64,000 nucleotides of DNA from Christensenellaceae bacterium. Its GTDB lineage: Bacteria > Bacillota > Clostridia > Christensenellales > Borkfalkiaceae. Under the pieces are notes generated by a model. The model searched no databases. It was not told the origin of the DNA and was given only the letters and a program-made list of their open reading frames with translations. Position 1 is the stretch's first letter. Each line of letters opens with the position of its first letter. Both the position numbers and the translations under genes were made by a program. The stretch is taken from positions 2,062 to 66,061 of the forward strand of contig JAZLMT010000025.1 in NCBI GenBank assembly GCA_045598745.1. The letters run 5' to 3'. This document shows, one piece after another, positions 14,573 through 57,703 of this stretch.

Positions 14573-14782
14573 ATGAAACAAGGTATTCATCCGAACTATC
14601 ATGAAGTAACGGTTGTTTGCGCATGTGGCGAAACATTTAAAACCGGTTCAACAAAAAATACAGACGTAATAAAGGTTGATATTTGTAGTAAATGCCATCC
14701 TTTCTTTACAGGTAAACAAAAATTAGTTGATACCGGTGGCCGTGTTGATAAGTTCAACAAGAGATATAGCAAAGAAAAATAA
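14573..14782 (+). CDS. rpmE: 50S ribosomal protein L31 (Zn-binding type A)
   Basis: [10 protein letters not shown]...CACGETF...[10 protein letters not shown]...[19 protein letters not shown]. Confidence 0.9.
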
Positions 14783-29855: not shown

Positions 29856-31771
29856 TGGTTATAACAAAAATTCACGTTTCTAGTTTTGGTGCGTTAAATA
29901 ATGTTGATTTTGATTTTAAAAACGGTATAAACACTATAAAAGAAGATAATGGCTTTGGTAAGACCACTTTATCGGTTTTTATTAAGGCTATGTTTTACGG
30001 TTTTAATAAAAAGGGGCGCACGGTAAAAACCGACGAAAGAAAGCAATATACTCCTTGGGGTAGTAATTCTCTATTCGGTGGCTATATTGAATTTGATTTT
30101 AAGGGTAAAAACTATAGAATTGAAAGATTTTTCGGGCAAAAAGAGAGTGACGATACTATAAAATTATACGATACTGCTACAATGACCGAATATAAAGGGC
30201 AAGATAATCTTGGTGAAAGGCTTTTCGGTATAGACGAAGCCGGTTTCGTTTCAACTTGTTTTTTATCGCAAAATAATTATGAAAATTCTTACGTTAGCAT
30301 AATTTCTAAATTTGAAGATATAGCAAAAACAAATAATGCAAATACTTTTATTGATGCAAAAAACATTTTGGAAAACGATATTAAGGACTTGAAACAACGG
30401 GGGGAAAAAGGTAAAATTCCAAATACCCAAAGAGAGATTAACGCAATAAATTTAGAACTTGAAAAAAAACAATCTATAGAACAATATCTTATAACTTTAG
30501 ATAAAAAGATTAAAGAAAATGAAGAAAAAATAAAGGTTTTAGATAAAGAAATTGAGTTTTTAGATGGTAAATCTCAAGTTGTAGCAAAAACGGATACGAT
30601 AAAATATAAGAAAGAGGATTATAAAAAACTGCTTGATGATAAAAATGAAATGCTTTCAAAAAAAGATAAACTTTATAATCTTATAAACGGTCAAACGATA
30701 TATGACGAAGAATATCAGCAATATTTTGATAAACACACAGAATATTTGAAGAATAAAGACGCTATTGTTAAACCTCAAAAACAAACTTCTACAGGCGTAA
30801 TGATTCCATTTTTTATTTTTTCGTTTATATCGCTTATTGTAAGTGTGGTAGGTTTATTTATACTTCCGCTTTTATTTTATATTTGTTTTCCTCTAACGTT
30901 TGCTTTCGTTGTATTCGGGCTGATATTCGTTAAAATATATAATAAAAATAAAAAGCCTGAACAAATTTTATCAAACGATTATAAAAATGATTTGATTGAA
31001 TTTTTAAGAAAATACGGATATTCCGAAAATGAATTAAATGATTTTTTGAAAATATTAAATAACATTAAAGACGTTTCAAAAGATCTGATTTATATAAAAG
31101 AACAGCTTAAAAATATTGAAATCAAGATTAAAGATAAAGAAAATGATGCGGATATTTTTAAAGAAATTTCTTTTGATGTTGATTATCAATCGTTAAATAG
31201 GGAATTAAACGAAAAAAGAGTTCATTGTAACGCTTTAAGGGAAGAAAACGCAACGAATAAAAACAATATTGTTCATTACGAAGAACAACTTTCCAACTTA
31301 AAGGATTTGGAAAGTAAGAAAGACGAGCTTGAAGAATCGTTAAAGGAATATAACGAAAGATTTGACATATTATCAAAAACTGTAGAGTTTTTAGATTGTG
31401 CTAACGAAAATTTAAAGGTAAAATACAGAAAACCGCTTGAGGACGCATTAAACAAATATTTATCTTTAATCGTAATAGAAAAGAAAATTTCAGCAAAAAT
31501 TGATACCGACTTAAATATTTTTATTGAAGAGAACGGAGTGCTTAAAGAAGCCGATTATTATAGCAAAGGGTTTCAGGATTTATTCAGAATTTGTAAAAGT
31601 TTTGCGCTTTGTGACGTGCTTTTTACTAATGAAAAACCGTTTGTAGTTTTAGATGACGTTTTTACAAATTTAGATGATAATAAACTAAAAGAAGCATTAA
31701 ACAGCGTTAAAGAACTTTCAAGTGAATATCAAATTTTATATTTTGTTTGCCATGAAAGTAGGAGAGTATAG
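29855..31771 (+). CDS. SbcC/Rad50-like (YhaN-like) ATPase with coiled coils and a central transmembrane hairpin
   Basis: N-terminal Walker A NGFGKTT. Long K/E-rich heptad regions. Hydrophobic stretch GVMIPFFIFSFISLIVSVVGLFILPLLFYICFPLTFAFVVFGLIFV. C-terminal Walker B FVVLDDVFTNLDD. Overlaps the upstream stop (TAATG). Confidence 0.65.
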   Translation: MVITKIHVSSFGALNNVDFDFKNGINTIKEDNGFGKTTLSVFIKAMFYGFNKKGRTVKTDERKQYTPWGSNSLFGGYIEFDFKGKNYRIERFFGQKESDDTIKLYDTATMTEYKGQDNLGERLFGIDEAGFVSTCFLSQNNYENSYVSIISKFEDIAKTNNANTFIDAKNILENDIKDLKQRGEKGKIPNTQREINAINLELEKKQSIEQYLITLDKKIKENEEKIKVLDKEIEFLDGKSQVVAKTDTIKYKKEDYKKLLDDKNEMLSKKDKLYNLINGQTIYDEEYQQYFDKHTEYLKNKDAIVKPQKQTSTGVMIPFFIFSFISLIVSVVGLFILPLLFYICFPLTFAFVVFGLIFVKIYNKNKKPEQILSNDYKNDLIEFLRKYGYSENELNDFLKILNNIKDVSKDLIYIKEQLKNIEIKIKDKENDADIFKEISFDVDYQSLNRELNEKRVHCNALREENATNKNNIVHYEEQLSNLKDLESKKDELEESLKEYNERFDILSKTVEFLDCANENLKVKYRKPLEDALNKYLSLIVIEKKISAKIDTDLNIFIEENGVLKEADYYSKGFQDLFRICKSFALCDVLFTNEKPFVVLDDVFTNLDDNKLKEALNSVKELSSEYQILYFVCHESRRV

Positions 31772-31773
31772 AT

Positions 31774-32217
31774 TTGGTAGAAAGAATTAAGTTTGAACTT
31801 GTTCCGAGTGGCTGTATGGGAATAAGTTTAAAGAACGGATTAGACAAAAAAGTTTGGCAAAAATTACGCTTAATTGCGCTTAAAAAATGCGGTAATAAGT
31901 GTTTTTGTTGCGGAAAACCTTTAACTAAATTTGAAGCGCATGAAGTTTGGAGTTATAATAAAGAAAAAGCGACAAGAAAACTTGAGAATATAATAGCAGT
32001 TTGCTCTGATTGTCACAAAGCGATTCATATGAATAGGACGTATCTTTTAGAAGATTACGAAAAAATAGAAGATCACTACTTAAAAGTTAATAACGCAAGT
32101 TACAGTGAGATGAAAAATGCGCTTAAAACAGCAAACGAAAAACAAAAAGAATTGAACGAAATATACGACTGGAAACTTGATTTAAGTTTTTTAGAAGATT
32201 TTATTAAGAAGGACTGA
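31774..32217 (+). CDS. small HNH-type nuclease-like protein
   Basis: CFCCG...AHEVW...VCSDCHKAIH fits a CxxC...H...CxxCH zinc-HNH pattern. TTG start 2 nt after the upstream stop. Confidence 0.55.
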   Translation: MVERIKFELVPSGCMGISLKNGLDKKVWQKLRLIALKKCGNKCFCCGKPLTKFEAHEVWSYNKEKATRKLENIIAVCSDCHKAIHMNRTYLLEDYEKIEDHYLKVNNASYSEMKNALKTANEKQKELNEIYDWKLDLSFLEDFIKKD

Positions 32218-32218
32218 T

Positions 32219-33019
32219 ATGGAAATTTTTGATTCACACGCACACATTTATCCGGAAAAAATAGCAGAAAAAGCGACTAAAGCTATAGGCGACTTTTATA
32301 ATTTAAAAATGGAAGAAGATAAAGGAACGCCGTCAAGGCTTATAGAAGTTGGTAAGTATGCAGGAATAAGTAAATACTTGGTGCATTCTTGTGCAACGAA
32401 AAGTAGCCAAGTTCATGCAATAAACGAATTTATTTTGCAAGAAATTACGGTTCATAAAGAATTTATCGGGTTTATGACGCTTCATCAAGACTTGACGATT
32501 GAAGAAATGAAAGAAGAAATACTGTTTTGTAAAGCAAACGGGTTCAAAGGGATAAAACTTCATCCTGACTTTCAAAAATTTGATATTGACTGTGAAGATG
32601 CAGAAAAAATTTATAAAGCCGTTGTTGAAACAAATTGTAATTTTCCGATACTTTTACACATGGGAGATAATAGGTTTGATTTCTCTAAACCGGAAAAACT
32701 TTGCGCTATGGCAAAAAAATATCCAAGCATTACGTTTATCGGGGCTCATTTCGGTGGATATAGATGCTGGGATAATCTTGAGCAGTATAAGGGAATAAAT
32801 AATATTTACTTTGATACAAGTTCGTCTTTGGATTTTATAGGAAGTAAAAGGGCGAAAGAATTAATTGAATTTTTTGGTGTAGATAAATTTTTCTTTGGAA
32901 CGGATTTTCCTATGTGGTCACCGAAAGATGAATTAAAAAGATTTTTTGATATCGGTTTAACAAACGAAGAAAACGAAAAGATACTATCAAAAAACCTTAA
33001 AAAATTACTGAATATTTAA
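32219..33019 (+). CDS. amidohydrolase-2 / TIM-barrel metal-dependent hydrolase family protein
   Basis: DSHAH N-terminal metal motif, KLHP, LLHMG, GAHFGG and GTDFPMW. Confidence 0.65.
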   Translation: MEIFDSHAHIYPEKIAEKATKAIGDFYNLKMEEDKGTPSRLIEVGKYAGISKYLVHSCATKSSQVHAINEFILQEITVHKEFIGFMTLHQDLTIEEMKEEILFCKANGFKGIKLHPDFQKFDIDCEDAEKIYKAVVETNCNFPILLHMGDNRFDFSKPEKLCAMAKKYPSITFIGAHFGGYRCWDNLEQYKGINNIYFDTSSSLDFIGSKRAKELIEFFGVDKFFFGTDFPMWSPKDELKRFFDIGLTNEENEKILSKNLKKLLNI

Positions 33020-33041
33020 TTAAAAAATAGTTATAAAAAAG

Positions 33042-33070
33042 TTGACAAAATTTTAGTCTTTTAGTATAAT
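33042..33070 (+). promoter_or_regulatory. consensus sigma-A promoter of the T-box operon
   Basis: TTGACA (33042-33047), 17-nt spacer, TATAAT (33065-33070). Confidence 0.7.
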
Positions 33071-33077
33071 ATACTAA

Positions 33078-33303
33078 AGACTGTGAAGGAAATAAGTTGT
33101 CAACCTTTTTTATTAAGAGAGTCGGTGGTTGGTGTGAACTGATTAAAAAATGATAACGCGCTCGTTCCGGAGTTGATTTGGTGAACTTTAGTAGCTGAAT
33201 TCGGGTAATTCCGTTAAAGATTTTGAGTGATTGCCTTTTGGCAATAATACGGGTGGTACCGCGGTTAATTCGTCCCTAAATAATTTTTTAGGGATTTTTT
33301 TGT
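33078..33303 (+). promoter_or_regulatory. T-box leader (tRNA-sensing transcription attenuator), probable Leu CUC specifier
   Basis: AGAGAG (33116-33121); distal-loop GGTGGTTGGTGTGAA; candidate specifier CTC followed by G (33161-33164); AGTAG; F-box CCGTTA (33211-33216); stem III ATTGCC-TTTT-GGCAAT (33230-33245); T-box AATACGGGTGGTACCGCGG (33246-33264); terminator TCCCTAAA-N6-TTTAGGGA plus T-run (33273-33303). Confidence 0.85.
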
Positions 33304-33320
33304 TTTTATTAGGAGTTTTT

Positions 33321-34712
33321 ATGAAAAACATCAAGATAATTGACGTATCTTTAAGGGAAATTCAATCTTCAAACGAATCGTTAAGTTTTAAGGAAAAGTT
33401 GGAAATAGCCAAAAAACTTGACGAATTAAACGTAGACGTTATTGAATTCGGTAATATTTGTGAAAAGGCTGATGAAGTTTTAATTAAGACTTTATCAACT
33501 TGTTTGACAAAATCAACGTTAGGATTAGTTGTAGACGGGAAGGTGAAAGACTTAAAGAAGTCCTATTCACTTGTTTCGCTTGCCAAAAAGAAAAAACTTA
33601 TAATAAAAATGCCGGTTTCTCCGATAAATATGGAATATTCTTTTCACTTAAAGCCGGCAGTTATATTAAAGAATTTTGAAGAACTTATAAAAAACGCTGT
33701 TTTAATTTGTGAAGACGTTGAAGTTCATTTTGAAGATTCTACCAGGGCAGAAAACGAATTTTTAATAAATGCAATAAAAACCGTTTTAAGTTTAGGGGTT
33801 AAATCAATAACGCTTTCCGATCAAACGGGGACAATGGAACCAAACGAGTTCAAAGAATTTATAGAGAATATTATTACTTTGGTTCCTGAAATAAAAAGCG
33901 TTGATTTGTTTGTTGAATGTTGTGATTTATTCAGAATGGCAACTTCGTCTATTATCAATGTTTTACCGAGTATTTCCGGTGTAAAGCTTTCAGCACTTAA
34001 TACATGTTGTTTGCCGGATTTTGAACATTTCTTTTCGGCACTTAACTATATCGGCGAAAAGAAAGGGTATTCTTCTAAAATAAATAAAACTTGCATTTCA
34101 AGGGTTGTTGGGCAAATATTGAATATTTCTTCTTCAAAAGCACAATCCGTTAACGATCAAGAAGAAACAGTAGAAAATATTTCAAAGAAGATAACGCTTA
34201 ATGCACTCACGAAACTTCTAAAAAAACGGGGGTATGATTTAACGGGAGAAGATATTTCTAAAATTTATGAAGAAATTTTAAGAATAGGCGAAAAGAAAGA
34301 TTTAACTACAAAAGAGCTTGATTCTATAGTTGCCGTAACGGCACTTCAAGTTCCGGCTACTTACGAGCTAAAAAATTATGCCGTTCACTCAAGCAACGTT
34401 TTATCTTCAACGGCAAACGTAACTTTAATAAAAAATAAAAATAGCGAAATAAACGGAATTGCGTTTGGAAACGGTTCGGTTGATTCTGCGTTTTTGGCAA
34501 TAGAAAATGCTCTTGGCCGTCATTTTGATCTTGATGAATTTTCACTTAACAGTGTTACCGAAGGTAAAGAAGCAATGGGTGAAACTATAATCAAGTTAAG
34601 AAATAACGGAAAGATTTATTCAGGTAGGGGTGTTTCTACCGATATTGTCGGTGCAAGTATAAAGGCTTATATAAACGCTTTAAACAAAATTGTATACGAG
34701 GAAAAAGAATAA
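33321..34712 (+). CDS. divergent 2-isopropylmalate synthase (LeuA) paralogue: catalytic motifs degenerate, C-terminal LeuA regulatory domain conserved
   Basis: IDVSLREIQSS replaces DTTLRDGEQS. VECCDLF replaces HxHND. GIGERAGN is absent. The C-terminus GNGSVDSAF...GKEAMGETIIKL...GKIYSGRGVSTDIVGASIKAYINALNKI matches the LeuA allosteric domain closely. AGGAG RBS plus ATG at 33321. Confidence 0.7.
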   Translation: MKNIKIIDVSLREIQSSNESLSFKEKLEIAKKLDELNVDVIEFGNICEKADEVLIKTLSTCLTKSTLGLVVDGKVKDLKKSYSLVSLAKKKKLIIKMPVSPINMEYSFHLKPAVILKNFEELIKNAVLICEDVEVHFEDSTRAENEFLINAIKTVLSLGVKSITLSDQTGTMEPNEFKEFIENIITLVPEIKSVDLFVECCDLFRMATSSIINVLPSISGVKLSALNTCCLPDFEHFFSALNYIGEKKGYSSKINKTCISRVVGQILNISSSKAQSVNDQEETVENISKKITLNALTKLLKKRGYDLTGEDISKIYEEILRIGEKKDLTTKELDSIVAVTALQVPATYELKNYAVHSSNVLSSTANVTLIKNKNSEINGIAFGNGSVDSAFLAIENALGRHFDLDEFSLNSVTEGKEAMGETIIKLRNNGKIYSGRGVSTDIVGASIKAYINALNKIVYEEKE

Positions 34713-37219
34713 TGCAATTATCATTTTCAACAAATGGTTGGAATTTAGATTTTAACAACTTAATAAAATTGTGCGTTGAAAATAAGATTTGCGGTCTTGA
34801 AATTCACGATATAAATGCCGATTGTTTTAATAACGGTAATCCTTTTATCAGGGAAAATATTAACAAAACAAAAAAGGCACTTTTTGAAAATAATATTTCA
34901 ATTTCTTGCTTTGATTTGAAAACGAATTTTGCTACTGTTTGTGAAAACGATTGTATCGTTAAAGAAATTGAAAATCTTATTTCGGTTGCAAACGAAATAA
35001 ATTGTAAATATATTCGTTTGCATGCTTTTGAATATGAAAAATATAACGAAAAGGTTTTTTATAAAAAAGCAAATGAATATTTAACCGGCTTAATAGAATA
35101 CGCAAAGAAGAAAAACGTTACCATTTTGTTTGAAACTATGGGTATTTTTTCTGACACGAAGGTTTTAGGGGATTTTCTAGGCAGTTTTGCAGACGATAAC
35201 CTTTCTTCTGTTTGGGACGTGCATAATACTTTCAGATTTGCAAACGAAAATCCAAACGTAACTGTTCAAAATTTAGGTAAAAATATAAAGCATATTCATA
35301 TAAAGGACAGTTTGATTGTAAACGGCAAAGTAAATTATTGTTTTTTGGGTGAAGGAGATTTGCCTGTAAAAGAAATAATAAAATCACTTATGTCTATCAA
35401 CTATGAAGGATATATTTCTTTGGAAGTTATTCCAGATTGGCTAGGTTCTTTAGGTGATGAAAATATTGTTTTACCACAATTTTCAAGTTATATGTCTTCG
35501 TTTGATATGGCACCGGCTTGGCAAAAGAAATTGTTTTTAAATAAATCGGGAACAGGTAAATTTATTTGGGCAAAAGATATTTTAATAGAAAAAACTTGCT
35601 CTCAAGTTTTAGATAGAGTTGCTTTAGATTTTCCTGATCAAGTTGCGTTTAAATATACGACTTTGGATTACACGAGAACTTATAAAGAATTTAGAGATGA
35701 AGTTGACGTTGTAGCAAGGGCATTGATGAGCGTTGGCGTTAGATCTGGTGATCACGTTGCCGTTTGGGCAACTAACGTTCCGGAATGGTTTTTGGTTTTC
35801 TGGGCAACGACAAAAATCGGGGCAGTTTTGGTTTCTGTTAATACTGCTTATAAATCACATGAAATAGAGTATCTTTTAAGACAATCTGATACGCATACTT
35901 TATTTATTATTGACGGATATAGGGATAGCAATTATGCTGAAATAATCAATGAATTATGTCCTGAACTTAAGAAAAATAAAAAAGGAAGTCCACTTCACGC
36001 AAAGCGTCTTCCTTTCCTTCGCAACGTTATAACAATCGGTTTTTCTCAAAGTGGTTCGCTTAATTTCAGTGAGTTTATGAATATGGCGAAACTTGTTTCG
36101 TATGAAGAAATGAAAGCCGTTGCTAACAGTGTAAAGATAAATGACGTTTGTAATATGCAATATACTTCGGGAACGACAGGTTTTCCAAAAGGGGTAATGC
36201 TCACACATTATAACATTATGAACAACGGTAAGTGCATAGGTGACAGAATGGATTTGTCAACGGCGGATAGAATGATGATTCAAGTTCCTATGTTCCATTG
36301 TTTCGGTATGGTTTTATCTATGATTGCGGCAATCACGCACGGCGTAACGATTTGTCCGCTTCCGTATTTTTCACCGAAGCCTGCACTTCAATGTATTAAT
36401 CAAGAGAGAATAACTTGTTTTCATGGCGTTCCTACAATGTTTATTGCGCTTTTATCTCACGCTGATTTTGCAAAAACGGATTTTTCATTTATGAGAACGG
36501 GAATAATGGCGGGAAGCCCTTGTCCTGTTTCCGTTATGCAAGACGTTTTGAATAAAATGAATATGAAAGAAATAACTATCGTTTACGGTCAAACGGAAGC
36601 TTCGCCTGGTTGCACAATGAGTTCAACTACCGATAGTGTGGACGTTAGAGTTAATACTGTTGGCGGTCCGCTTCCAAACGTAGAGTGCAAGATAGTTAAT
36701 CCGGAAACTAATGAAGAATTGCCGATAAACACCGTTGGTGAATTTGTTGCACGTGGCTATAACGTTATGAAAGGTTATTACAAAATGCCTATTGAAACTG
36801 CTAAAACCATTGATGAAGACGGTTGGCTTCATACGGGCGACCTTGCGTTAAAGACGGAAGAAGGCAATTTTAGAATTACGGGTAGATTGAAAGATATGAT
36901 TATCCGTGGCGGTGAAAACTTATATCCTAAAGAGATAGAAGATTTCTTATATACGCACCCGAAAATATCAGACGTTCAAGTTGTTGGTGTTCCTGATGAA
37001 AAATATGGTGAAGAAGCGTATGCTTTCATTATATTAAAGGAAAATCAAACGTTAACGGAAGAAGAATTAAGAAAATATTGTAACGAAAGAATAGCAAAAC
37101 ATAAAGTTCCGAGATATTTTGATTTTGTGGATAGTTTTCCTATGAACGTTGCAGGAAAAATTCTCAAATATAAAATGAGAGAAGATGCAGAAAATAAAAT
37201 AAAAAGCAATAGGAAATAA
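34712..37219 (+). CDS. fusion protein: xylose-isomerase-like TIM barrel (sugar-phosphate isomerase/epimerase family) plus AMP-forming acyl-CoA ligase
   Basis: N-terminal ~270 aa carry LFET, WDVHN, HIHIKD and SLEV, as in AP-endonuclease-2/xylose-isomerase-like barrels. The C-terminus has YTSGTTGFPKGVMLTH, YGQTE, WLHTGD, GRLKDMIIRGGENLYP and the terminal GKILK lysine motif. Confidence 0.75.
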   Translation: MQLSFSTNGWNLDFNNLIKLCVENKICGLEIHDINADCFNNGNPFIRENINKTKKALFENNISISCFDLKTNFATVCENDCIVKEIENLISVANEINCKYIRLHAFEYEKYNEKVFYKKANEYLTGLIEYAKKKNVTILFETMGIFSDTKVLGDFLGSFADDNLSSVWDVHNTFRFANENPNVTVQNLGKNIKHIHIKDSLIVNGKVNYCFLGEGDLPVKEIIKSLMSINYEGYISLEVIPDWLGSLGDENIVLPQFSSYMSSFDMAPAWQKKLFLNKSGTGKFIWAKDILIEKTCSQVLDRVALDFPDQVAFKYTTLDYTRTYKEFRDEVDVVARALMSVGVRSGDHVAVWATNVPEWFLVFWATTKIGAVLVSVNTAYKSHEIEYLLRQSDTHTLFIIDGYRDSNYAEIINELCPELKKNKKGSPLHAKRLPFLRNVITIGFSQSGSLNFSEFMNMAKLVSYEEMKAVANSVKINDVCNMQYTSGTTGFPKGVMLTHYNIMNNGKCIGDRMDLSTADRMMIQVPMFHCFGMVLSMIAAITHGVTICPLPYFSPKPALQCINQERITCFHGVPTMFIALLSHADFAKTDFSFMRTGIMAGSPCPVSVMQDVLNKMNMKEITIVYGQTEASPGCTMSSTTDSVDVRVNTVGGPLPNVECKIVNPETNEELPINTVGEFVARGYNVMKGYYKMPIETAKTIDEDGWLHTGDLALKTEEGNFRITGRLKDMIIRGGENLYPKEIEDFLYTHPKISDVQVVGVPDEKYGEEAYAFIILKENQTLTEEELRKYCNERIAKHKVPRYFDFVDSFPMNVAGKILKYKMREDAENKIKSNRK

Positions 37220-37223
37220 AGAT

Positions 37224-37799
37224 ATGGATACTGCTTTATTGGTTTGTTTAATAACATCATCGTTGTCTATTTTAACTTTTGTCGTTACTTTCATTTTTAA
37301 TTTATCATCGAATAAAAGTAATAACACTAAAGATATTATTGTAAAACAGAGAGTGAAAACTTTAGATAATTACAGATGTTCTTGTAAGGATTTTTTAGCT
37401 TTGATTAAGCCTGAAGTTATAGATGATTTCAAGAAAAACAAAGAAAAAAAAATGATATATACTTTGGAATTATCAAAAGCAAAATCTTCACTTGATTTGA
37501 TTTTAAAACCTTTTTTCGAGACTGAAGAAAAAATAAATAATTTAACTGATAAAATCGTAAAATTATGTTTTTTGTATTATAGTAATCCAAACGAAAAAAG
37601 CAAATTGGAAATTGAAGAATTGTCAAATGAGTTATTAGTTTTGTTTTCTTTGTATGATTGGGCATACTGGAGATTTATTCAAGAACAAAAAGACGGAATT
37701 TTAAAAGATGATAACGGTTCTTTCGATAAGAATTACAATGACGTTTTAGAGAGTGTTGTTAGTTTAGAAAAAAAATATATAAATTTAATAAAAAAATAG
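37224..37799 (+). CDS. hypothetical protein with N-terminal TM anchor and helical K/E-rich body (no recognisable family)
   Basis: MDTALLVCLITSSLSILTFVVTFIF anchor. Visibly more AT-rich than its neighbours. 4 nt after the upstream stop. Confidence 0.4.
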   Translation: MDTALLVCLITSSLSILTFVVTFIFNLSSNKSNNTKDIIVKQRVKTLDNYRCSCKDFLALIKPEVIDDFKKNKEKKMIYTLELSKAKSSLDLILKPFFETEEKINNLTDKIVKLCFLYYSNPNEKSKLEIEELSNELLVLFSLYDWAYWRFIQEQKDGILKDDNGSFDKNYNDVLESVVSLEKKYINLIKK

Positions 37800-37809
37800 A
37801 GGTATTATT

Positions 37810-38880
37810 ATGCAAGAGATTAAAATTACAAAGGCAAAAGTTTTGAAAGAAAAACCAGATTATTCAAAACTTGGTTTCGGCAAATATTTTACCGATCATA
37901 TGTTTATGATGGATTATACGCCAGAAAAGGGTTGGTATGATGCAAGGATTATTCCATACGGCAATCTTTCAATCAATCCGGCAACAACTGTTTTACACTA
38001 TGGCGTAGAAATTTTTGAAGGATTAAAAGCTTATAGAACAGAAGACGGTTATCAATTATTCCGTCCTTATGAAAACTTTAAGAGAATGAACGATTCTGCC
38101 GAGAGATTATCACTTCCACAAGTTGACGTTGATTTTTGTGTAGAAACATTAAAAACTTTGATAAATATTGATTACGATTGGATTCCGAAAGATTTAGGAA
38201 CTTCGCTTTATATTCGTCCGTTTATGTTCGGTAGTGACGAAGCTTTGGGTGTTCACGCAGTTAAAAATGCAACTTTCGTTATAATTTTATCACCTGTTGG
38301 CAGTTATTATGCCGGTGGTTTAGCACCTGTTAAAATCGGTATTGAAAGTCAAGACGTTAGGGCTGTTCGTGGCGGAACGGGTTATGCAAAATGCGGTGGA
38401 AATTACGCAGCATCTCTCCGTGCAGATAAAAAGGCATCGGCAAAAGGTTTTTCTCAAGTTTTATGGCTTGACGGCGTAGAAAGAAAGTATATTGAAGAAG
38501 TTGGCGCTATGAACGTTATGTTCAAAATAAAGGGTGAAATTATTACGCCGAAACTTATCGGCTCGGTTCTTCCTGGTATTACAAGAAAATCAATTCTTGA
38601 GATTTTGAAAGATTGGGGATATAAGGTTACCGAAAGATTGTTCTCTGTTGACGAATTAATAAAGGCTGCTAAAAAAGGCACGCTTGAAGAAGCTTGGGGA
38701 ACGGGAACGGCTGCAGTTGTTTCACCGATAGGCCTTCTTTCTTATCTTGATAAAGACTATACGATTTCTAATAATCAAATAGGTGAATTAACTCAAAAAC
38801 TTTATGATGAACTTACCGGAATTCAATGGGGTTTAAGAGAAGATACTCATAATTGGATCGTTAAAGTTAAGGTTAAATAA
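37810..38880 (+). CDS. ilvE: branched-chain amino acid aminotransferase (fold type IV)
   Basis: FGKYFTDHMF, VLHYGVEIFEGLKAYR, and GGTGYAKCGGNYAAS (PLP lysine region). Confidence 0.9.
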   Translation: MQEIKITKAKVLKEKPDYSKLGFGKYFTDHMFMMDYTPEKGWYDARIIPYGNLSINPATTVLHYGVEIFEGLKAYRTEDGYQLFRPYENFKRMNDSAERLSLPQVDVDFCVETLKTLINIDYDWIPKDLGTSLYIRPFMFGSDEALGVHAVKNATFVIILSPVGSYYAGGLAPVKIGIESQDVRAVRGGTGYAKCGGNYAASLRADKKASAKGFSQVLWLDGVERKYIEEVGAMNVMFKIKGEIITPKLIGSVLPGITRKSILEILKDWGYKVTERLFSVDELIKAAKKGTLEEAWGTGTAAVVSPIGLLSYLDKDYTISNNQIGELTQKLYDELTGIQWGLREDTHNWIVKVKVK

Positions 38881-39542
38881 TGGAGCATAAAAGGGTTACT
38901 ATATTTTCGGGGCATTACGGAAGCGGAAAGACAAACGTTTCGGTAAATTATGCAAAGGAACTGAAAAGATTAGGTAAACAAGTCAGTATTTTTGATTTAG
39001 ATATTGTTAATCCGTATTTTAGAACGGTTGACGCCAAAGCCGATTTGGAAAGTAACGGAATAGAACTTATTGTTTCGCCTTATGCGGAAACGAACGTAGA
39101 TATTCCGGCGATGAACGCAATGTCGTATAAAATCAATGATGATAAAAGTAAATTTGCCGTTATTGATTTGGGTGGTGATGACAGAGGCGCTTTGGCACTC
39201 GGTAGATTTTCTCAAAAAATACTTGAAGAAAACAACTATGAATTTGTTTACGTTGTAAATACTTTTAGGCCGGAAACAAGAAATATTGAAGGTTTAGAAG
39301 AAATTAAAGAAGAAATTGAAAGTGTTGCTAAAATGAAATTTACCGCAATCGTCAACAACACGAATCTTTCAACCGAAACGACTTTAGAAGATATAGAGAA
39401 CAGTTTTAAGTTAGTAACGGAATTTAGTAAAAAATATAATCTTCCTATACTTTTTACATCAGTTAGGCGAGATTTATATAATAAAGAACAAAAAAAAGAA
39501 AAATATCTTCCCCTTGATTTAATAAAATACGGGGAATGGTAG
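38880..39542 (+). CDS. SIMIBI-class (MinD/ParA/CobQ-like) P-loop ATPase, function unknown
   Basis: Walker A GHYGSGKT and Walker B AVIDLGGDD. The start codon shares one base with the ilvE stop. Confidence 0.55.
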   Translation: MEHKRVTIFSGHYGSGKTNVSVNYAKELKRLGKQVSIFDLDIVNPYFRTVDAKADLESNGIELIVSPYAETNVDIPAMNAMSYKINDDKSKFAVIDLGGDDRGALALGRFSQKILEENNYEFVYVVNTFRPETRNIEGLEEIKEEIESVAKMKFTAIVNNTNLSTETTLEDIENSFKLVTEFSKKYNLPILFTSVRRDLYNKEQKKEKYLPLDLIKYGEW

Positions 39543-39552
39543 AGGAGAAATA

Positions 39553-39759
39553 ATGGCAAAAGTAACTTTTGACGTAGATCGTTGCAAGGGTTGTGGCTTA
39601 TGCGTAAGCGTTTGCCCAAAAAAAATTATAAGACTAGCAAAAGAAAAAATTAACAAAAAAGGGTATCATCCTGCAGAAATGACAGATCAAGCAAGTTGTA
39701 TTGCTTGTGCATTTTGCGCAACTATGTGCCCGGATACAGTTATCACTGTAGAGAAATAG
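39553..39759 (+). CDS. 2-oxoacid:ferredoxin oxidoreductase delta subunit (2x[4Fe-4S] ferredoxin)
   Basis: CKGCGLCVSVCP and CIACAFCATMCP motifs. 68 aa. Confidence 0.8.
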   Translation: MAKVTFDVDRCKGCGLCVSVCPKKIIRLAKEKINKKGYHPAEMTDQASCIACAFCATMCPDTVITVEK

Positions 39760-39768
39760 GAGGAGATT

Positions 39769-40839
39769 ATGGCTGAAAAAGTTTTAATGAAAGGTAACGA
39801 AGCTTTGGCTGAAGCTGCTATAATGGCAGGTTGCAGACATTATTTCGGTTATCCTATCACACCACAAACGGAAGTTGCCGCATATATGAGTAAGCGTATG
39901 CCTAAAATCGGCGGTGTATTCCTTCAAGCTGAATCTGAAGTTGCCGCTATCAATATGGTTATCGGTGTATCGGCTTGCGGAAAGAGAGTAATGACAAGTA
40001 GTAGTAGCCCTGGAATTTCACTAAAGAGCGAAGGTATTTCATACCTTGCAGGTTGTGAACTTCCTGCGCTAATCGTAAACGTTCAAAGGGGTGGCCCTGG
40101 TCTTGGTGGTATTCAACCTTCACAATCAGACTACTTTCAAGCAACGAAGGGTGGTGGACACGGCGACTATAAGTTGTTGGTTTTAGCACCTGCATCAGTT
40201 CAAGAAATGGTTGATTTAACGGTTAAAGGTTTTGACCTTGCCGATAAATACAGAATGCAAACTATGTTGTTGGCTGACGGAACAATGGGACAAATGATGG
40301 AACCTGTTTCGTTAGAAGTCCCAACGCAAAAGGTTTACGATAAGCCTTGGGCAACAACGGGAACTGCTAATCACGAAGGTAGAAACATTATAAATTCTTT
40401 AAGTTTAACACCTGCACAACTTGAACAATGGAATATTTCAAGATTTGAAAGATATAAAATTGTTGAAGAAAACGAAGTTATGTATGAAGAATTTATGATG
40501 GATGATGCAGATATTTGTATCGTTGCATTCGGTATTGCTTCAAGAGTTTCTAAAAATGCAATTTTAGAAGCTAGAAAACAAGGAATTAAAGTCGGATTGC
40601 TTCGTCCTATTACGTTATGGCCTTTCCCAAAGAAAGCATTAAAAGAAGCAAGTAAAAAGGTTAAATCTTTCCTTTCAGTTGAACTCAATATGGGGCAAAT
40701 GATTGATGACGTTAAACTTGCAATTGATTGCAGTAAACCTGTTTACTTGTGTAATAGAACCGGTGGCGTTATTATGTCAACGGATGAAGTATTAAATAAA
40801 ATTATTGAAATAACAAAAGGGGAGGCAAAGGCATGGTAG
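39769..40839 (+). CDS. 2-oxoacid:ferredoxin oxidoreductase alpha subunit
   Basis: MKGNEALAEAAIMAGCRHYFGYPITPQTE and the downstream layout typical of Kor/Vor alpha subunits. Confidence 0.85.
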   Translation: MAEKVLMKGNEALAEAAIMAGCRHYFGYPITPQTEVAAYMSKRMPKIGGVFLQAESEVAAINMVIGVSACGKRVMTSSSSPGISLKSEGISYLAGCELPALIVNVQRGGPGLGGIQPSQSDYFQATKGGGHGDYKLLVLAPASVQEMVDLTVKGFDLADKYRMQTMLLADGTMGQMMEPVSLEVPTQKVYDKPWATTGTANHEGRNIINSLSLTPAQLEQWNISRFERYKIVEENEVMYEEFMMDDADICIVAFGIASRVSKNAILEARKQGIKVGLLRPITLWPFPKKALKEASKKVKSFLSVELNMGQMIDDVKLAIDCSKPVYLCNRTGGVIMSTDEVLNKIIEITKGEAKAW

Positions 40840-41579
40840 TTTTTGAAAAGACTAAGGGCTTAACGGATAATGAACTTCATTATTGCCCGGGTTGTACACA
40901 TGGTATAATTCATAGATTAGTTGCAGAATGCCTTGAAGAATTGGGCGTTTTAGACAGAACGGTTGGCGTTGCTTCGGTTGGTTGTTCGGTTTTCTCGTAT
41001 AACTATTTCAATTGTGATATGATTCAAGCAGCGCACGGTAGAGCACCTGCAGTTGCAACGGGCGCTAAAAGAGCAAACCCGAATAATATCGTATTTACGT
41101 ATCAAGGTGACGGTGACCTTGCTGCTATCGGAACGGCTGAAACAGTTCACTCTGCCGGTCGTGGTGAAAATATCACGGTAATATTTGTAAACAATGCTAT
41201 TTACGGTATGACCGGTGGTCAAATGGCACCTACAACACTTCCAAATCAAGTAACACAAACTTCACCTTACGGTAGAGACGTTACCGTTGTTGGTTATCCG
41301 ATTAAAGTATGTGAAATGCTTTCTCAAGTAGACGGCGCAGGATATCTTGAAAGGGTTGCAGTTAATAACGTTAAGAACATTAAAAATGCAAAAAAGGCAA
41401 TTATGCATGCGTTTAAGAACCAGATTGAAGGCAAAGGATTTTCTCTTATAGAAGTTCTTTCAACTTGCCCGACAAACTGGGGCTTAGCACCACAAGATGC
41501 AATTAAGTGGCTTGATGAAAATATGGAAACATATTATCCTTTAGGTGTTTATAAAGATAAATACAAGGAGGAAAAATAA
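40833..41579 (+). CDS. 2-oxoacid:ferredoxin oxidoreductase beta subunit (TPP-binding)
   Basis: YCPGCTHG, GDGDLAAIG and NNAIYGMTGGQ TPP motifs. Confidence 0.85.
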   Translation: MVVFEKTKGLTDNELHYCPGCTHGIIHRLVAECLEELGVLDRTVGVASVGCSVFSYNYFNCDMIQAAHGRAPAVATGAKRANPNNIVFTYQGDGDLAAIGTAETVHSAGRGENITVIFVNNAIYGMTGGQMAPTTLPNQVTQTSPYGRDVTVVGYPIKVCEMLSQVDGAGYLERVAVNNVKNIKNAKKAIMHAFKNQIEGKGFSLIEVLSTCPTNWGLAPQDAIKWLDENMETYYPLGVYKDKYKEEK

Positions 41580-41580
41580 T

Positions 41581-42120
41581 ATGACAGAAGCAAAAATGTT
41601 AATAGCTGGCTTTGGTGGACAAGGTATTTTGTTCACCGGAAAGGCTATTGCTTATACAGGCTTAAAAATCGGCAAAGAAGTAAGTTGGTTACCTTCTTAC
41701 GGACCGGAAATGAGAGGCGGAACGGCAAATTGTTCAGTAACGATTTCCGATACGCCGATAGGTTCTCCAATCGTAGAAAAACCGAATATACTTATTGCTA
41801 TGAACCTACCATCTTTAGAAAAGTATTATAACGATACCGAAAAGGGTGGATATATAATATATGACAGTTCACTCATTAGCAAGCAGGATACCAGAGATGA
41901 TGTTACCACCATTGGTATTCCTGCGACAAAACTTGCAAGTGATAACGAACTTGGTGGACTGGCAAATATGATTATCTTGGGTAAAGTATTACAAGCAACA
42001 AAAATACTTACACTAGATCAAGTTAAGAGCAGTCTATCGCAAATGATTCCTGCAAAACGTGCAGAAATGTTAGAAAAAAATATTAAGGCGATAGAATTGG
42101 GCTTTGAGTTCAAGGAGTAA
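41581..42120 (+). CDS. 2-oxoacid:ferredoxin oxidoreductase gamma subunit
   Basis: [10 protein letters not shown] and [10 protein letters not shown] motifs. ATG 41581 follows a GGAGG-type RBS. Confidence 0.85.
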
Positions 42121-42124
42121 AATA

Positions 42125-42676
42125 ATGAAAGAACAGTTAATAGAAATGGGGCTTCGTCTTGCTGACTTAAGAGAAACAAAAGATGTTTCGCAAGAAGAAA
42201 TTGCTGAAAGACTTAATATTCCACTTGAAGAATATCAAGCATACGAAAACGGTGAAAGAGATTTTTCTTTCAGTTTTATGTATAATGTAGCAACAATTTT
42301 GGAAGTTGACGTTTTTAATTTACTTTCAGGAACTTCTCCTAAACTAAACGACTGTGCAGTTGTTAGGCGTGGGCACGAATTTTATATAAAAAAAGAAGGT
42401 GCCTACGACTATAAACATCTTGCATACACGTTCAAAAATAAAAAAGCAGAACCTTTCTTTGTAAGTTGTGAACCGGGTGAAGAGGATAAAGAACTTCATA
42501 GCCACGAAGGTCAAGAATTTAACTTTATTCTTTCGGGTAAAATGTTATTTAAGATCGGTTCAATGTCTTATGAACTTAATAAGGGTGATAGCGTATATTT
42601 TAATTCAAAAATTCCACACGGAATTAAAGTTTTAGGCGATACACCGGTTAAGTTTCTTGCTTTTGTAATGAAATAA
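42125..42676 (+). CDS. XRE-family HTH transcriptional regulator with C-terminal cupin domain
   Basis: N-terminal HTH_3 pattern LRLADLRETKDVSQEEIAERLNIPLEEYQAYENGE. C-terminal cupin HSHEGQEFNFILSG...GDSVYF...PH. Confidence 0.8.
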   Translation: MKEQLIEMGLRLADLRETKDVSQEEIAERLNIPLEEYQAYENGERDFSFSFMYNVATILEVDVFNLLSGTSPKLNDCAVVRRGHEFYIKKEGAYDYKHLAYTFKNKKAEPFFVSCEPGEEDKELHSHEGQEFNFILSGKMLFKIGSMSYELNKGDSVYFNSKIPHGIKVLGDTPVKFLAFVMK

Positions 42677-42701
42677 TTCTATAAGCCTATTTGGAGAAAA
42701 T

Positions 42702-44423
42702 ATGGTAATTTACGAAAAGTTTATCGGTAGAACAAGAGATTCTTTTACCGATTTAAACGACTTAAGACAAAATTTTAAAATTGAATATCCAAATAATTTC
42801 AACTTTGCGTATGACGTAATTGATGAATTAGGCAAAACAAAACCAAAAAAGCTTGCTATGATTTGGCTTTCTAAAACCATGGAAGAAAAGAGATTTACTT
42901 TTTCCGATATGATGATTTGGTCAAATAAGGCTGCAAATTATTTTAAAAGTGAAGGTATTAAAAAAGGCGACAGAGTTTTACTTGTCCTTAAGAGAAGTTA
43001 TTTATTCTGGTTTGCTATGCTTGGGCTTCATAAGATAGGTGCGATTCCTGTTCAAGCAACTAATATGCTTGTAGGGCATGACTTTACCTACCGTTGCAAT
43101 AAAGGTGCAATTAAAGCTGTTATAATGACTGGTGATGATGACGTTACGGAACATTTTGATGACGTTTGGGCAAAATGTCCAACCGTTACAAAGAAATACG
43201 TAACTAAACATAAAAAGCCTGTCGGTGGCTGTTGGATTGATTTTGAAGAAGGTTTAGAAAAGGCTAGTGAAGATTGGGTGCGCCCTACAGGTGAAGACGC
43301 AACGACTGTTAACGACGTAATGCTTATGGCGTTTACTTCGGGAACGACAGGATATCCAAAGATGATTAAACATGATTTTAGATATCCTTTAGGTCATATT
43401 ATGACTGGCGTTTTTTGGCATAGAGTTGTCAACGGAGGCTTACATTTCACCATTTCTGATACGGGCTGGCTTAAATCTTTATGGGGCAAATTCTATGGCC
43501 AATGGTTTGGTGAATCTGCCGTTTTGGTTTACGACTTTGATAAGTTTGATGCTAAAGAAATACTTGAAATTCTAGAAAAATATAAGGTAACTACTTTCTG
43601 TGTTCCACCAACAATGTATAGATTTATTCTTCAACAAGACGTTGCAAAATATAATCTTTCAAGTCTAACAAACTGCTGTTCTGCAGGTGAAGCCTTAAAT
43701 GCAGATATTTATAACAAGTGGAAACAATTTACGGGTTTAGATATTTATGAAGGTTTTGGGCAAACGGAAACAACTCTTTGTTTAGGCACGCTAAAAGGTT
43801 TTGCAACGCCGATTTCAGGTTTTATAGGAACGCCTATTCCGGGTTATGAAATTTCTATCAAAAATGCTGAAGGGGTAGATTGTTTACCTGGTGAAGAAGG
43901 CGAAATTTGTATTAAAGGCACTTTGGCAAATAAGCCTTGCGGTGTTTCATGCGGATATCACGATGATGAAGAAAGTATGGCTAAATCATGGAAAGACGGA
44001 TATTTTCACACAGGTGATACGGCTTATTTTGATGAACACGGGCTTATTAAATATATAGGAAGAAATGATGACGTTATAAAGTCGTCAGGATACCGTATAG
44101 GGCCTTTTGAAGTTGAAAGCGTTTTAATGGAACATCCTGCCGTTTTAGAAGTTGCGGTAACCGGCTATCCTGATGCAAAACGTGGTTTTTGTGTTAAAGC
44201 AACAATCGTATTAAAAAAAGGATATATTCCGAGTGACGAGCTTAAATTAGAGCTTCAAACGTTTGTAAAACATAATACAGCACCTTATAAATATCCAAGA
44301 ATTATTGAGTTTGTTGATTCTCTTCCAAAAACCATTAGCGGTAAAATAAAGAGAACGGAAATTCGTGATAGAGATATTGAGAATTATAAAAAACTTTTAG
44401 AAATAAAAACTATAACTGAATAA
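42702..44423 (+). CDS. AMP-forming acyl-CoA synthetase, medium-chain (ACSM/MACS-like) type
   Basis: FTSGTTGYPKMIKH, YEGFGQTE, YFHTGD, GRNDDVIKSSGYRIGP and SGKIKR. Confidence 0.8.
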   Translation: MVIYEKFIGRTRDSFTDLNDLRQNFKIEYPNNFNFAYDVIDELGKTKPKKLAMIWLSKTMEEKRFTFSDMMIWSNKAANYFKSEGIKKGDRVLLVLKRSYLFWFAMLGLHKIGAIPVQATNMLVGHDFTYRCNKGAIKAVIMTGDDDVTEHFDDVWAKCPTVTKKYVTKHKKPVGGCWIDFEEGLEKASEDWVRPTGEDATTVNDVMLMAFTSGTTGYPKMIKHDFRYPLGHIMTGVFWHRVVNGGLHFTISDTGWLKSLWGKFYGQWFGESAVLVYDFDKFDAKEILEILEKYKVTTFCVPPTMYRFILQQDVAKYNLSSLTNCCSAGEALNADIYNKWKQFTGLDIYEGFGQTETTLCLGTLKGFATPISGFIGTPIPGYEISIKNAEGVDCLPGEEGEICIKGTLANKPCGVSCGYHDDEESMAKSWKDGYFHTGDTAYFDEHGLIKYIGRNDDVIKSSGYRIGPFEVESVLMEHPAVLEVAVTGYPDAKRGFCVKATIVLKKGYIPSDELKLELQTFVKHNTAPYKYPRIIEFVDSLPKTISGKIKRTEIRDRDIENYKKLLEIKTITE

Positions 44424-44440
44424 AAAAATCAGAAAAAAGA

Positions 44441-44467
44441 AAGCCTTTTTATAGAAGGCTTTTTTTG
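44441..44467 (+). terminator. rho-independent terminator ending the 11-kb operon
   Basis: AAGCCTT-N7-AAGGCTT followed by TTTTTT. Confidence 0.6.
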
Positions 44468-44509: not shown

Positions 44510-44527
44510 ATATTAAAAGGAGTGGTT

Positions 44528-45790
44528 ATGATAAAAGAGCGCATTTATATGGTTATTGATATGAAATGTTTTTTTGCATCGGTTGAATGCGCTGAAAGAG
44601 GTTTAAATCCTTTTTTAACAAATCTTGTCGTAACAGATGCTTCAAGAGGAAGTGGCGCAATATGTTTGGCAATTTCACCAAAGATGAAGGAACTAGGCGT
44701 TAAAAACAGATGCAGAATTTTTGAAATACCTAAAAATATTGAATATATATCGGCTCTACCGAGAATGAAAAAATATATTGAATATGCTTCAAATATCTAT
44801 GAAATATACCTTCAATATATAGATAAAAACGATATACACGTTTATTCAATTGACGAAAGTTTTATTGATGTTACAGATTACTTAAAAATATATAATAAAA
44901 CTCCGAAAGAGTTCGCAAAAATGTTAATCGGAGAGATTGCTCAAAAGCTTAAAATACCTGCAACTTGCGGTATCGGAACAAATATGTATCTTGCAAAAAT
45001 AGCACTTGATATAACGGCAAAAAAGTCAGAAGATCACATAAGTTTTTTAGATGAAGAGCTATATAAAGAACAGCTATGGCACCACAAACCGTTGACGGAT
45101 TTTTGGCAAATCGGAGCAGGTATTGAAAGAAGATTAAACAGGCGTGGTATAATGGATATGTATGATTTGGCACATTATCCCGAAGAATATTTATATAAAG
45201 AATTCGGTATAAATGCCGAGCTTATAATAGATCATGCTTGGGGCAGAGAAAGTTGCCTCATGAAAGATATAAAAAATTATAAAGGGCAAGAAAAATCAGT
45301 TTCCACTTCACAAATATTATTTCACGATTATGAATACGAAAGTGCTAAACTTGTTATTGAAGAAATGGTTAGAAATTGTTCGTTAGATTTAATCAAACGT
45401 GGGCTTGTGAGTGATAATATAAATATTTTAGTCGGATACGCAGGTGAACTTGGTATTAATGTTAAAGGTCATATTAAAATGACTGCTAAAACAAACGTAG
45501 CAAATATTATGATACCATACGTTGATAAAAAGTTTTATGAAATAGTAGATAAAGATAAAAAAATCAAACGGCTGGGAATTGAATTTTCTAACGTTGTAGA
45601 TAAGTCTTTGGAGAGTTACGATTTGTTTACCGATTATGAAAAAGTAAAAAGACAAGTTAGTTTGGGAGAGATTTCAAACAAAATCAAAAGTAAATTTGGT
45701 AAAAATGCAATAATAATGGGAGCAGATTTACAAGAAGACGCAACAACAATTATACGAAATAAACTTATAGGTGGGCACAATAGTGAATAG
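44528..45790 (+). CDS. Y-family (translesion) DNA polymerase, UvrX/YqjW-like
   Basis: IDMKCFFASVECAERGLNPF, SIDESFIDVT, and little-finger region. AAGGAG RBS before ATG 44528. Confidence 0.85.
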   Translation: MIKERIYMVIDMKCFFASVECAERGLNPFLTNLVVTDASRGSGAICLAISPKMKELGVKNRCRIFEIPKNIEYISALPRMKKYIEYASNIYEIYLQYIDKNDIHVYSIDESFIDVTDYLKIYNKTPKEFAKMLIGEIAQKLKIPATCGIGTNMYLAKIALDITAKKSEDHISFLDEELYKEQLWHHKPLTDFWQIGAGIERRLNRRGIMDMYDLAHYPEEYLYKEFGINAELIIDHAWGRESCLMKDIKNYKGQEKSVSTSQILFHDYEYESAKLVIEEMVRNCSLDLIKRGLVSDNINILVGYAGELGINVKGHIKMTAKTNVANIMIPYVDKKFYEIVDKDKKIKRLGIEFSNVVDKSLESYDLFTDYEKVKRQVSLGEISNKIKSKFGKNAIIMGADLQEDATTIIRNKLIGGHNSE

Positions 45791-57674: not shown

Positions 57675-57703
57675 TTGACAATGTTTTACATATATTGTAT
57701 AAT
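57675..57703 (+). promoter_or_regulatory. sigma-A promoter of valS
   Basis: TTGACA (57675-57680), 17-nt spacer, TATAAT (57698-57703). A second TTGACAAT copy lies at 57662-57669. Confidence 0.55.

Follow-up and report, generated by a model that had tools for sequence, protein, structure and literature searches.

A leucine T-box operon with acyl-CoA ligase, oxidoreductase and aminotransferase genes in Clostridia: a candidate route from branched short-chain fatty acids to branched-chain amino acids

We analysed a stretch of 64,000 nucleotides, hereafter the window, from a contig of a Christensenellaceae bacterium (JAZLMT010000025.1 of assembly GCA_045598745.1). It has a GC content of 32% and its genes include spoIVA, der, plsY, valS and trpS, from which the host is judged to be a spore-forming member of the Bacillota. 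Between positions 33042 and 44467 lies a predicted operon in which a T-box leader precedes 11 open reading frames (ORFs; g01 to g11), among them genes for two acyl-CoA ligases, a branched-chain amino acid aminotransferase (IlvE) and a four-subunit 2-oxoacid:ferredoxin oxidoreductase (OFOR). We consider it likely that this operon would be induced by leucine starvation and would make branched-chain amino acids (BCAAs) from exogenous branched short-chain fatty acids. The domain and family calls in the list below were made with Pfam and with NCBIfam and its curated cut-offs, and for g03 also with PHROG and PADLOC.

33042-33070, + strand: sigma-70-type promoter, TTGACA-17-TATAAT, 12/12 match to the consensus
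33074-33280, + strand: T-box leader (RF00230, 136.9 bits, E = 2.3e-30)
33272-33305, + strand: T-box terminator, a hairpin (33272-33295; GUCCCUAAAUAAUUUUUUAGGGAU) followed by a T-run (U-run in the RNA)
33321-34712, + strand: g01, LeuA-like protein of 463 aa, HMGL-like TIM barrel plus LeuA allosteric domain
34712-37219, + strand: g02, xylose-isomerase-like TIM barrel (residues 1-~285) fused to an AMP-forming acyl-CoA ligase (~290-835)
37224-37799, + strand: g03, ORFan of 191 aa with an N-terminal hydrophobic segment, between the ligase fusion g02 and ilvE
37810-38880, + strand: g04, IlvE, class IV branched-chain amino acid aminotransferase (NCBIfam)
38880-39542, + strand: g05, SIMIBI-class P-loop NTPase (weak Pfam matches to CbiA and ParA)
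39553-39759, + strand: g06, OFOR delta subunit, 2x[4Fe-4S] ferredoxin domain (Fer4 families; two CxxCxxCxxxCP motifs)
39769-40839, + strand: g07, OFOR alpha subunit, VorB-type (POR_N and PFOR_II domains; NF005507)
40833-41579, + strand: g08, OFOR beta subunit, binding thiamine pyrophosphate (TPP) and [4Fe-4S] (TPP_enzyme_C; CPGC motif, GDG...NN)
41581-42120, + strand: g09, OFOR gamma subunit (Pfam POR, 5.3e-40)
42125-42676, + strand: g10, protein with an XRE-type helix-turn-helix (HTH) and a cupin domain (HTH_3 and Cupin_2)
42702-44423, + strand: g11, medium-chain AMP-forming acyl-CoA synthetase of the MACS/MbcS type (PDB and NCBIfam matches)
44441-44467, + strand: intrinsic terminator at the end of the operon, AAAGCCTTTTTATAGAAGGCTTT then TTTTTGTTT

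The original prediction had described a consensus promoter, a complete T-box leader and 12 genes. Both regulatory elements are present as described, whereas only 11 forward-strand ORFs lie between the T-box and the terminator at 44441-44467, and the earlier gene list itself sums to 11. The junctions between them measure, in order, -1, +4, +10, -1, +10, +9, -7, +1, +4 and +25 nt, in agreement with the claim of gaps ranging from overlaps to 25 nt, and this spacing suggests that the 11 ORFs are co-transcribed. Also upheld were the domain assignments of every gene (Pfam and NCBIfam), the lack of any leuBCD or ilvBCD gene in the operon, which extends to the annotated flanking genes of the window, and the lack of a convincing terminator before 44441-44467. 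The other forward-strand terminator-like matches, three in number, all fall within coding sequence and have poor T-tails, and the total of nine such matches, with 7.3 expected, is at chance level.

The promoter is one of three perfect 12/12 sites in the 64 kb, where 0.1 would be expected, and all three are intergenic (3/3). The T-box, the sole Rfam match of the window, begins four bases past it, spans model positions 1-219 of 219 and is thus untruncated, and scores 136.9 bits against a gathering score of 93. Alignment to the RF00230 covariance model gives CUC (Leu) as the specifier codon, hence a BCAA codon, at 33161-33163; it is followed by the purine G at 33164 and the closing helix UUCC at 33165-33168, the specifier loop on the 3' side of Stem I reading ...ACGCG-CUC-G. 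The T-box core GGGUGGUACCGCG occupies 33251-33263, and its UGGU bulge (33254-33257) would pair with a discriminator A73, a pairing that tRNA-Leu allows but that is not unique to it. The terminator hairpin and the 3' strand of the antiterminator share GUCCC and are predicted to be mutually exclusive structures. In the mechanism that we propose, uncharged tRNA-Leu(GAG) would pair with the CUC specifier and the UGGU bulge and stabilise the antiterminator, upon which RNA polymerase would read through into the operon.

Some further elements were noted around the promoter and inside the operon. A 12-nt imperfect inverted repeat (TTTAGTCTTTTA / TAATATACTAAA, at 33052-33063 / 33067-33078) overlaps both the -10 box and the start of transcription; it may act as an operator, e.g., for the HTH-cupin protein. 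A 14-nt inverted repeat at 33035-33048 / 33097-33110 was rejected as a regulatory element because the first of its two arms precedes the transcription start. An 11/12 promoter-like site (TTTACA-18-TATAAT, 39453-39482) is located within the 3' end of the P-loop gene, 70 nt 5' of the OFOR delta gene; it may drive the OFOR, HTH-cupin and second ligase genes independently of leucine or may be a chance occurrence, about three 11/12 sites being expected by chance per window.

The enzymes at the core of the proposed pathway are the OFOR and IlvE. The aminotransferase g04 is above two curated cut-offs (NF009897, 473.5 bits vs 307; TIGR01123, 387.4 vs 250). The OFOR set is complete, with a TPP-binding beta subunit, a 2x[4Fe-4S] delta subunit and an alpha subunit that passes the VorB model alone (NF005507, 546.5 bits vs a cut-off of 399). 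The alpha subunit stays under the cut-offs of KorA (259.6 vs 579), PorA (100 vs 550) and the IOR models, as well as that of the Pyrococcus-type VOR alpha model (75 bits vs 646). By these curated hidden Markov model thresholds it falls outside the 2-oxoglutarate and pyruvate enzymes as represented by KorA and PorA. The operon OFOR thus resembles known four-subunit OFORs (the H. pylori OorDABC type, archaeal VOR and KGOR) in its delta-alpha-beta-gamma set and its TPP and Fe-S motifs, and is distinguished from them by passing only the VorB model and by its linkage to a P-loop NTPase and ilvE. That one curated model and the context, i.e., the linkage to ilvE and the Leu, Ile and Val T-boxes described below, suggest a specificity for branched substrates.

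Both ligases are of the AMP-forming type. The second one, g11, aligns over its full length (residues 6-558) with PDB entry 3ETC, MacsMa of Methanosarcina acetivorans (E = 1.3e-192, 644 bits), an enzyme for which 2-methylbutyrate is the preferred substrate (PMC10455477). Its best NCBIfam model is MbcS, at 407.7 bits and under the cut-off of 850, from which we conclude that g11 is a relative of MbcS and not an orthologue. It differs from both MacsMa and S. aureus MbcS in being paired, or in related loci fused, with an HTH-cupin protein and in standing under amino-acid T-box control. We propose that g11 is a CoA ligase for branched C4-C5 acids, i.e., 2-methylbutyrate and/or isobutyrate. The first ligase, g02, is a fusion protein (Pfam AP_endonuc_2 1.5e-24, AMP-binding 5.4e-93, and AMP-binding_C) that reaches 705 bits with NCBIfam PRK12583, under the cut-off of 832; its ORF overlaps that of g01 by one base in the window. 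With the Leu T-box as a guide, we propose isovalerate as its substrate.

The first gene of the operon, g01, shares with LeuA (2-isopropylmalate synthase, IPMS) the fold, the LeuA_dimer domain (2e-31; HMGL-like 2.3e-29) and a G-N/D-G-P loop. Its AlphaFold2 (AF2) model has a pLDDT of 87.6, and the top Foldseek matches are IPMS, MAM synthase and Mycobacterium tuberculosis LeuA, with TM-scores of 0.83-0.91 to IPMS catalytic domains and with full-length M. tuberculosis LeuA, including the leucine-bound structure 3FIG, among them. It differs from LeuA in lacking the metal-binding Asp/His/His and in falling far below the cut-offs of all NCBIfam LeuA equivalog models (best 245.9 bits vs 532). Aligned to the N. 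meningitidis IPMS, the Asp of LRDGEQ is replaced by Glu13 and the two His of HxH by Glu199 and Cys201, and these columns vary among the 81 members of the g01 family (E/Q/A/R/K; E/T/Q/S/A; the second His mostly S). Because the metal ligands are replaced and unconserved, the family is judged not to be one of Claisen-condensing enzymes, and g01 was rejected as a functional LeuA or citramalate synthase. Its best-conserved part is the C-terminal allosteric domain (mean majority frequency 0.78 vs 0.59 for the barrel), which contains a near-invariant G-[D/N]-G-P-[I/V]-x-A-A-F loop. We take this to be the loop that lines the leucine site of LeuA and to which feedback-resistant mutations map. The retained LeuA fold, the lost metal ligands, the high conservation of the allosteric domain and the constant adjacency of g02 point to g01 as a leucine sensor. 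We suggest, tentatively and with rather more doubt than conviction, that it binds leucine through the conserved regulatory domain and feedback-inhibits its translationally coupled partner ligase g02. Databases contain thousands of g01 relatives, under the names “hypothetical” or [quoted passage not shown]

A comparable partner may exist for the second ligase. The H127/E131/H165 triad is invariant in 51 homologues of the HTH-cupin protein g10, fused and unfused, and g10 weakly matches HppE (1ZZ6) across both domains. In related loci the HTH-cupin is fused to the ligase, giving ORFs of 755-805 aa, and because this fusion is frequent the protein seems to act on or with the enzyme and not on DNA alone. 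A sensing or regulatory role for the second ligase, analogous to that of g01 for g02, is speculative; this HppE-like protein with its 2-His-1-Glu site may be a sensor of 2-oxoacids or amino acids, or a BirA-like enzyme-repressor.

A survey of one genome per species, in which relatives of g01 (35-44% identity) were located and their neighbours identified by tblastn with the window proteins, places the operon in a wider context. The 80 loci that encode g01 relatives occur nearly all in metagenome-assembled genomes of Clostridia, mostly of rumen, gut or faecal origin. Their hosts belong to the Acutalibacteraceae, Lachnospiraceae, Oscillospiraceae and unclassified Clostridia and include one cultured rumen isolate, Lachnospiraceae bacterium G41. 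The g01 and g02 genes are adjacent in every related locus that reaches far enough, and the order g01-g02-ilvE-P-loop-delta-alpha-beta-gamma-HTH/cupin-ligase is repeated in many loci and on two gut-metagenome contigs (L081 and L082). In all, the module is conserved in more than 80 loci. The 823 flanking ORFs of the 80 loci were clustered as well; every cluster was confined to 10 loci or fewer, and no leu, ilv, fab or transporter genes recurred among these ORFs.

T-box specifiers in these loci were read from Rfam alignments and by a structure-anchored pattern search, and the two were cross-checked. CUC was found in 42/42 resolved leaders ahead of g01 homologues (40 genome loci, the window, L081 and L082), and in the other 41 it sits at the same model position as in the window. 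These leaders span Lachnospiraceae, Acutalibacteraceae, Oscillospiraceae and Christensenellales-like genomes, and the bases around the codon vary (GUCUCA, GUCUCG, GCGCUCG, GUCUCC, UGCUCU). In rearranged loci the gene for the MACS-type ligase occurs in duplicate, each copy being fused to the HTH-cupin and having its own T-box; of the leaders ahead of these HTH-cupin-ligase genes, 16 have the specifier AUC (Ile) and 10 have GUA or GUG (Val). Typically, an Ile copy and a Val copy are followed by ilvE and the OFOR genes. Across loci, the type of ligase and the specificity of its T-box thus match one-to-one. Three ligase modules responding to the tRNAs for Leu, Ile and Val, with one OFOR and IlvE in common, suggest three entry points into the BCAAs from the three cognate acids and would otherwise be hard to explain. 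The family calls and the Leu, Ile and Val T-boxes bear out the original prediction that ligase, OFOR and IlvE genes are combined under the control of BCAA availability, and the comparison of loci gives that prediction considerably more support than it had at the outset.

In some of the rearranged loci the tandem HTH-cupin-ligase leaders are near-identical save for the specifier, AUC vs GUA; this was observed in L075 (13875-14114 and 16484-16728) and likewise in L062, L080, L021, L022, L030, L042 and L043. In a ligase tree the Ile and the Val copies are not each monophyletic. The near-identical leaders and this non-monophyly suggest repeated duplication with switching of the specifier. The g11 ligase belongs in the same tree to an unfused clade of collinear operons that has no T-box of its own and may, for this reason, serve both Ile and Val.

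The pathway that emerges would run as follows. The two AMP-forming ligases would activate the branched acids, isovalerate by g02 and 2-methylbutyrate and/or isobutyrate by g11; the VorB-type OFOR would convert the acyl-CoA, with CO2 and reduced ferredoxin, into the 2-oxoacid by reductive carboxylation; and IlvE would transaminate the latter to Leu, Ile or Val. Leucine would be the most likely product, and isoleucine and valine would probably be formed too. Both the direction in which the OFOR would work and the substrate of each enzyme are proposed from sequence and gene context. Several observations favour synthesis over degradation. T-boxes switch genes on when the cognate amino acid is short, i.e., they induce on amino-acid shortage; it is the ligases, not the OFOR, that bear amino-acid-specific regulation; and a putative leucine-binding protein, g01, is built into the Leu branch. 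That both ligases are AMP-forming favours activation of acids, and neither ptb/buk nor an ADP-forming synthetase was present in the domain and family calls of the operon proteins or in the related-locus neighbourhoods.

A number of points weigh against this reading. OFORs are reversible, and their direction is not readable from sequence. The nearest solved structures to g07 (1YD7, 8YS5 and 6N2N) are alpha subunits of 2-oxoglutarate or generic 2-oxoacid enzymes, and the beta, gamma and delta subunits passed no specific NCBIfam model. For the ligase domain of g02 no close characterised relative was found, which leaves the Leu T-box as the pointer to isovalerate. With one Leu T-box over the common enzymes and g11, starvation for Ile or Val would not be inducing in the window operon unless there is an internal promoter. 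Many collinear Acutalibacteraceae loci carry no T-box at all. Finally, the pathway gives the TIM barrel and the P-loop protein no role, so that some chemistry may be missing. As regards the Acutalibacteraceae, L004 (9880-10000) and other collinear loci of this family have the same ten genes behind a sigma-70-like promoter and a leader of ~90 nt with the palindrome ACTTATAGTGCATAAGT; in view of this palindromic leader and the missing T-box, control there is probably protein-based.

The alternative that survives best, although we regard it as unlikely, is that the chemistry of the Leu branch differs from the one proposed. The g01/g02 pair would then convert another precursor (a hydroxy or keto acid, or an isomer), or would be regulatory, with g11, OFOR and IlvE as a salvage route. 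The TIM barrel of g02 is probably catalytic, as its four canonical metal ligands (E141, D169, H196 and E238) are retained in 55-61 of 66 homologues, and in Lachnospiraceae the g01-g02 pair occurs alone under a Leu T-box, without an OFOR within 10 kb. Both observations would suit a separate Leu chemistry, as would the isolated position of the g02 ligase domain. In a minority of homologues, however, the metal ligands are gone (E141K, D169N, H196R) and the fusion is still kept. The barrel itself offers little to build on: among PDB sequences it weakly matches sugar epimerases alone, and its stand-alone homologues adjoin MerR and flavodoxin genes, which do not point to a reaction. The parallel Ile and Val ligase modules with their common OFOR and IlvE, in turn, make isovalerate the simplest substrate.

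As regards the direction of the pathway, the most serious rival to synthesis is the salvage of primers for branched-chain membrane fatty acids, which we nevertheless hold to be improbable. In that case the ligases, together with IlvE and an oxidatively working OFOR, would yield acyl-CoA primers, and the T-box would merely track BCAA scarcity. MbcS of S. aureus, the family whose model g11 matches best, supplies lipid primers; IlvE and OFOR could indeed also turn BCAAs into acyl-CoA, and plsY is present elsewhere in the window. It would, however, be counterproductive to degrade leucine through IlvE and OFOR just when tRNA-Leu is uncharged. Separate ligases under Leu, Ile and Val T-boxes fit the supply of the cognate amino acid better than a demand for lipids that all three would share, a LeuA-like partner that binds leucine would have no place in the making of lipids, and linked fab genes are missing from the 80 loci. 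A Stickland-type oxidative breakdown of BCAAs to branched acids for energy is very improbable, since, even though in Clostridia that pathway begins with IlvE and a VOR-type OFOR and OFORs work both ways, T-boxes induce when the amino acid is lacking, AMP-forming ligases would waste ATP catabolically, and neither ptb/buk nor an ADP-forming acyl-CoA synthetase was found in the operon or the related loci.

Two further proteins of the operon are less easily placed in the synthetic route. The P-loop NTPase g05 is always encoded just 5' of the OFOR delta gene in the related loci. We considered whether it might activate electrons at the expense of ATP, as NifH and HgdC do, and rejected this, since its translation contains no cysteine. 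Its AF2 model (pLDDT 84) gives loose Foldseek matches to ATPase-type HypB and then to signal recognition particle GTPases, at a TM-score of ~0.55 too weak for a function to be adopted from them. More than 8000 database relatives are labelled “hypothetical” or “MinD-like ATPase,” the closest named one being from Candidatus Caballimonas caccae (Christensenellaceae; 84% identity). Perhaps g05 takes part in OFOR maturation, which is a guess. The GC content of the ORFan g03, 25%, is lower than that of any other gene in the operon. Pfam, NCBIfam, PHROG and PADLOC gave no family match for it, and none of the related loci contains a homologue; there, ilvE directly follows g02. We regard g03 as a probable lineage-specific insertion that would be transcribed along with the operon without belonging to the conserved module.

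The chemistry and T-box operons are both classical; what appears to be new is the assignment of genes and the cluster. In rumen and gut anaerobes, isovalerate, isobutyrate and 2-methylbutyrate were reportedly shown by Allison and co-workers, from the 1960s to the 1980s, to be reductively carboxylated to BCAAs, on the basis of physiology and labelling. The chemistry proposed here is the same and so are the habitats, since the related loci come mostly from rumen and gut metagenomes; the difference is that a gene cluster and its regulation are proposed, and this in Clostridia, not in Prevotella, Bacteroides or Megasphaera. For Prevotella the reverse reaction was still called unproven in 2020 (PMC7709123). 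Our full-text literature search, in which subscription journals were not covered, yielded neither an assignment of genes to the route nor a description of the cluster, in line with the earlier remark that no description of such a T-box-controlled module was known. The T-box surveys consulted mention no OFOR or acyl-CoA genes, and a literature match in Geobacter was rejected as a precedent because it concerns a canonical leuA T-box.

The closest regulatory parallel is the ilv-leu operon of B. subtilis (ilvBHC-leuABCD), in which a Leu (CUC) T-box senses uncharged tRNA-Leu. Both operons place a multi-gene BCAA supply under CUC T-box attenuation. The window operon has no acetolactate synthase, IlvC, IlvD or LeuBCD, and its LeuA relative is dead; moreover, carbon comes from pyruvate in B. 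subtilis, whereas in the window operon it would come from preformed branched acids and CO2. The new accessory parts are a dead LeuA with a leucine-binding-type domain, a TIM-fused ligase and a ligase paired or fused with an HTH-cupin. One might go further and see the long-known route from branched acids to BCAAs defined genetically for the first time, as a modular system widespread in gut and rumen Clostridia, with a ligase for each cognate T-box, a sensing partner for each ligase (for Leu a pseudo-isopropylmalate synthase, retained solely as the leucine-binding allosteric subunit of a TIM-fused isovalerate ligase; for Ile and Val an HppE-like HTH-cupin fused to the ligase) and a SIMIBI NTPase for the OFOR; in this full form the claim is doubtful, and we put it forward only as a possibility.

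If correct, the proposal would be of practical use in the microbiology of rumen and gut. Many fibre-degrading bacteria of the rumen need branched-chain volatile fatty acids or are stimulated by them, and dairy cattle receive these acids in their feed as “isoacids”; in the human gut they are major products of protein fermentation. A T-box-marked cluster would allow the trait to be predicted from genome and metagenome sequences, the LeuA-like family and the P-loop family having thousands of unnamed members apiece, and it could explain apparent BCAA auxotrophy or prototrophy in uncultured Clostridia. It would also give concrete targets for knock-outs, heterologous expression and enzyme assays. 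Annotation is mended in one respect, as g01 is easily mistaken for leuA but is not leuA. The loci would furthermore illustrate cleanly, in nature, how the specifier of a T-box is switched once a gene has been duplicated, and how a biosynthetic enzyme, LeuA, comes to be reused as a pseudoenzyme that senses a ligand.

Some observations concern the surroundings of the operon and of its relatives. The flanks of related loci contain a Gut-1 small RNA (RF01706, 75.7 bits; L062, 1296-1371) and a TPP riboswitch (L059, 14915-15011), both unrelated to the module. In the window, valS (57729-60353) has a perfect 12/12 promoter at 57675-57703, ~25 nt ahead of its start, without a T-box, and trpS (22394-23395) is likewise without one. 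Directly 5' of the T-box promoter lies an Amidohydro_2 gene (266 aa, 32219-33019). Genes of this family, which includes reversible non-oxidative decarboxylases, recur near the module in L081 (3872-4672), L082 (360-1160), L075 (8882-9667) and L044 (~13915-14643); the linkage is loose, and these four loci are from different lineages. Further 5', at 28776-32217, sbcD/Mre11-like and sbcC/Rad50-like genes are followed by a small HNH endonuclease ORF. Immediately 3' of the operon, at 44522-46097, lie dinB (DNA polymerase IV) and a yolD-like gene, a pair served by its own 11/12 promoter-like site at 44481.

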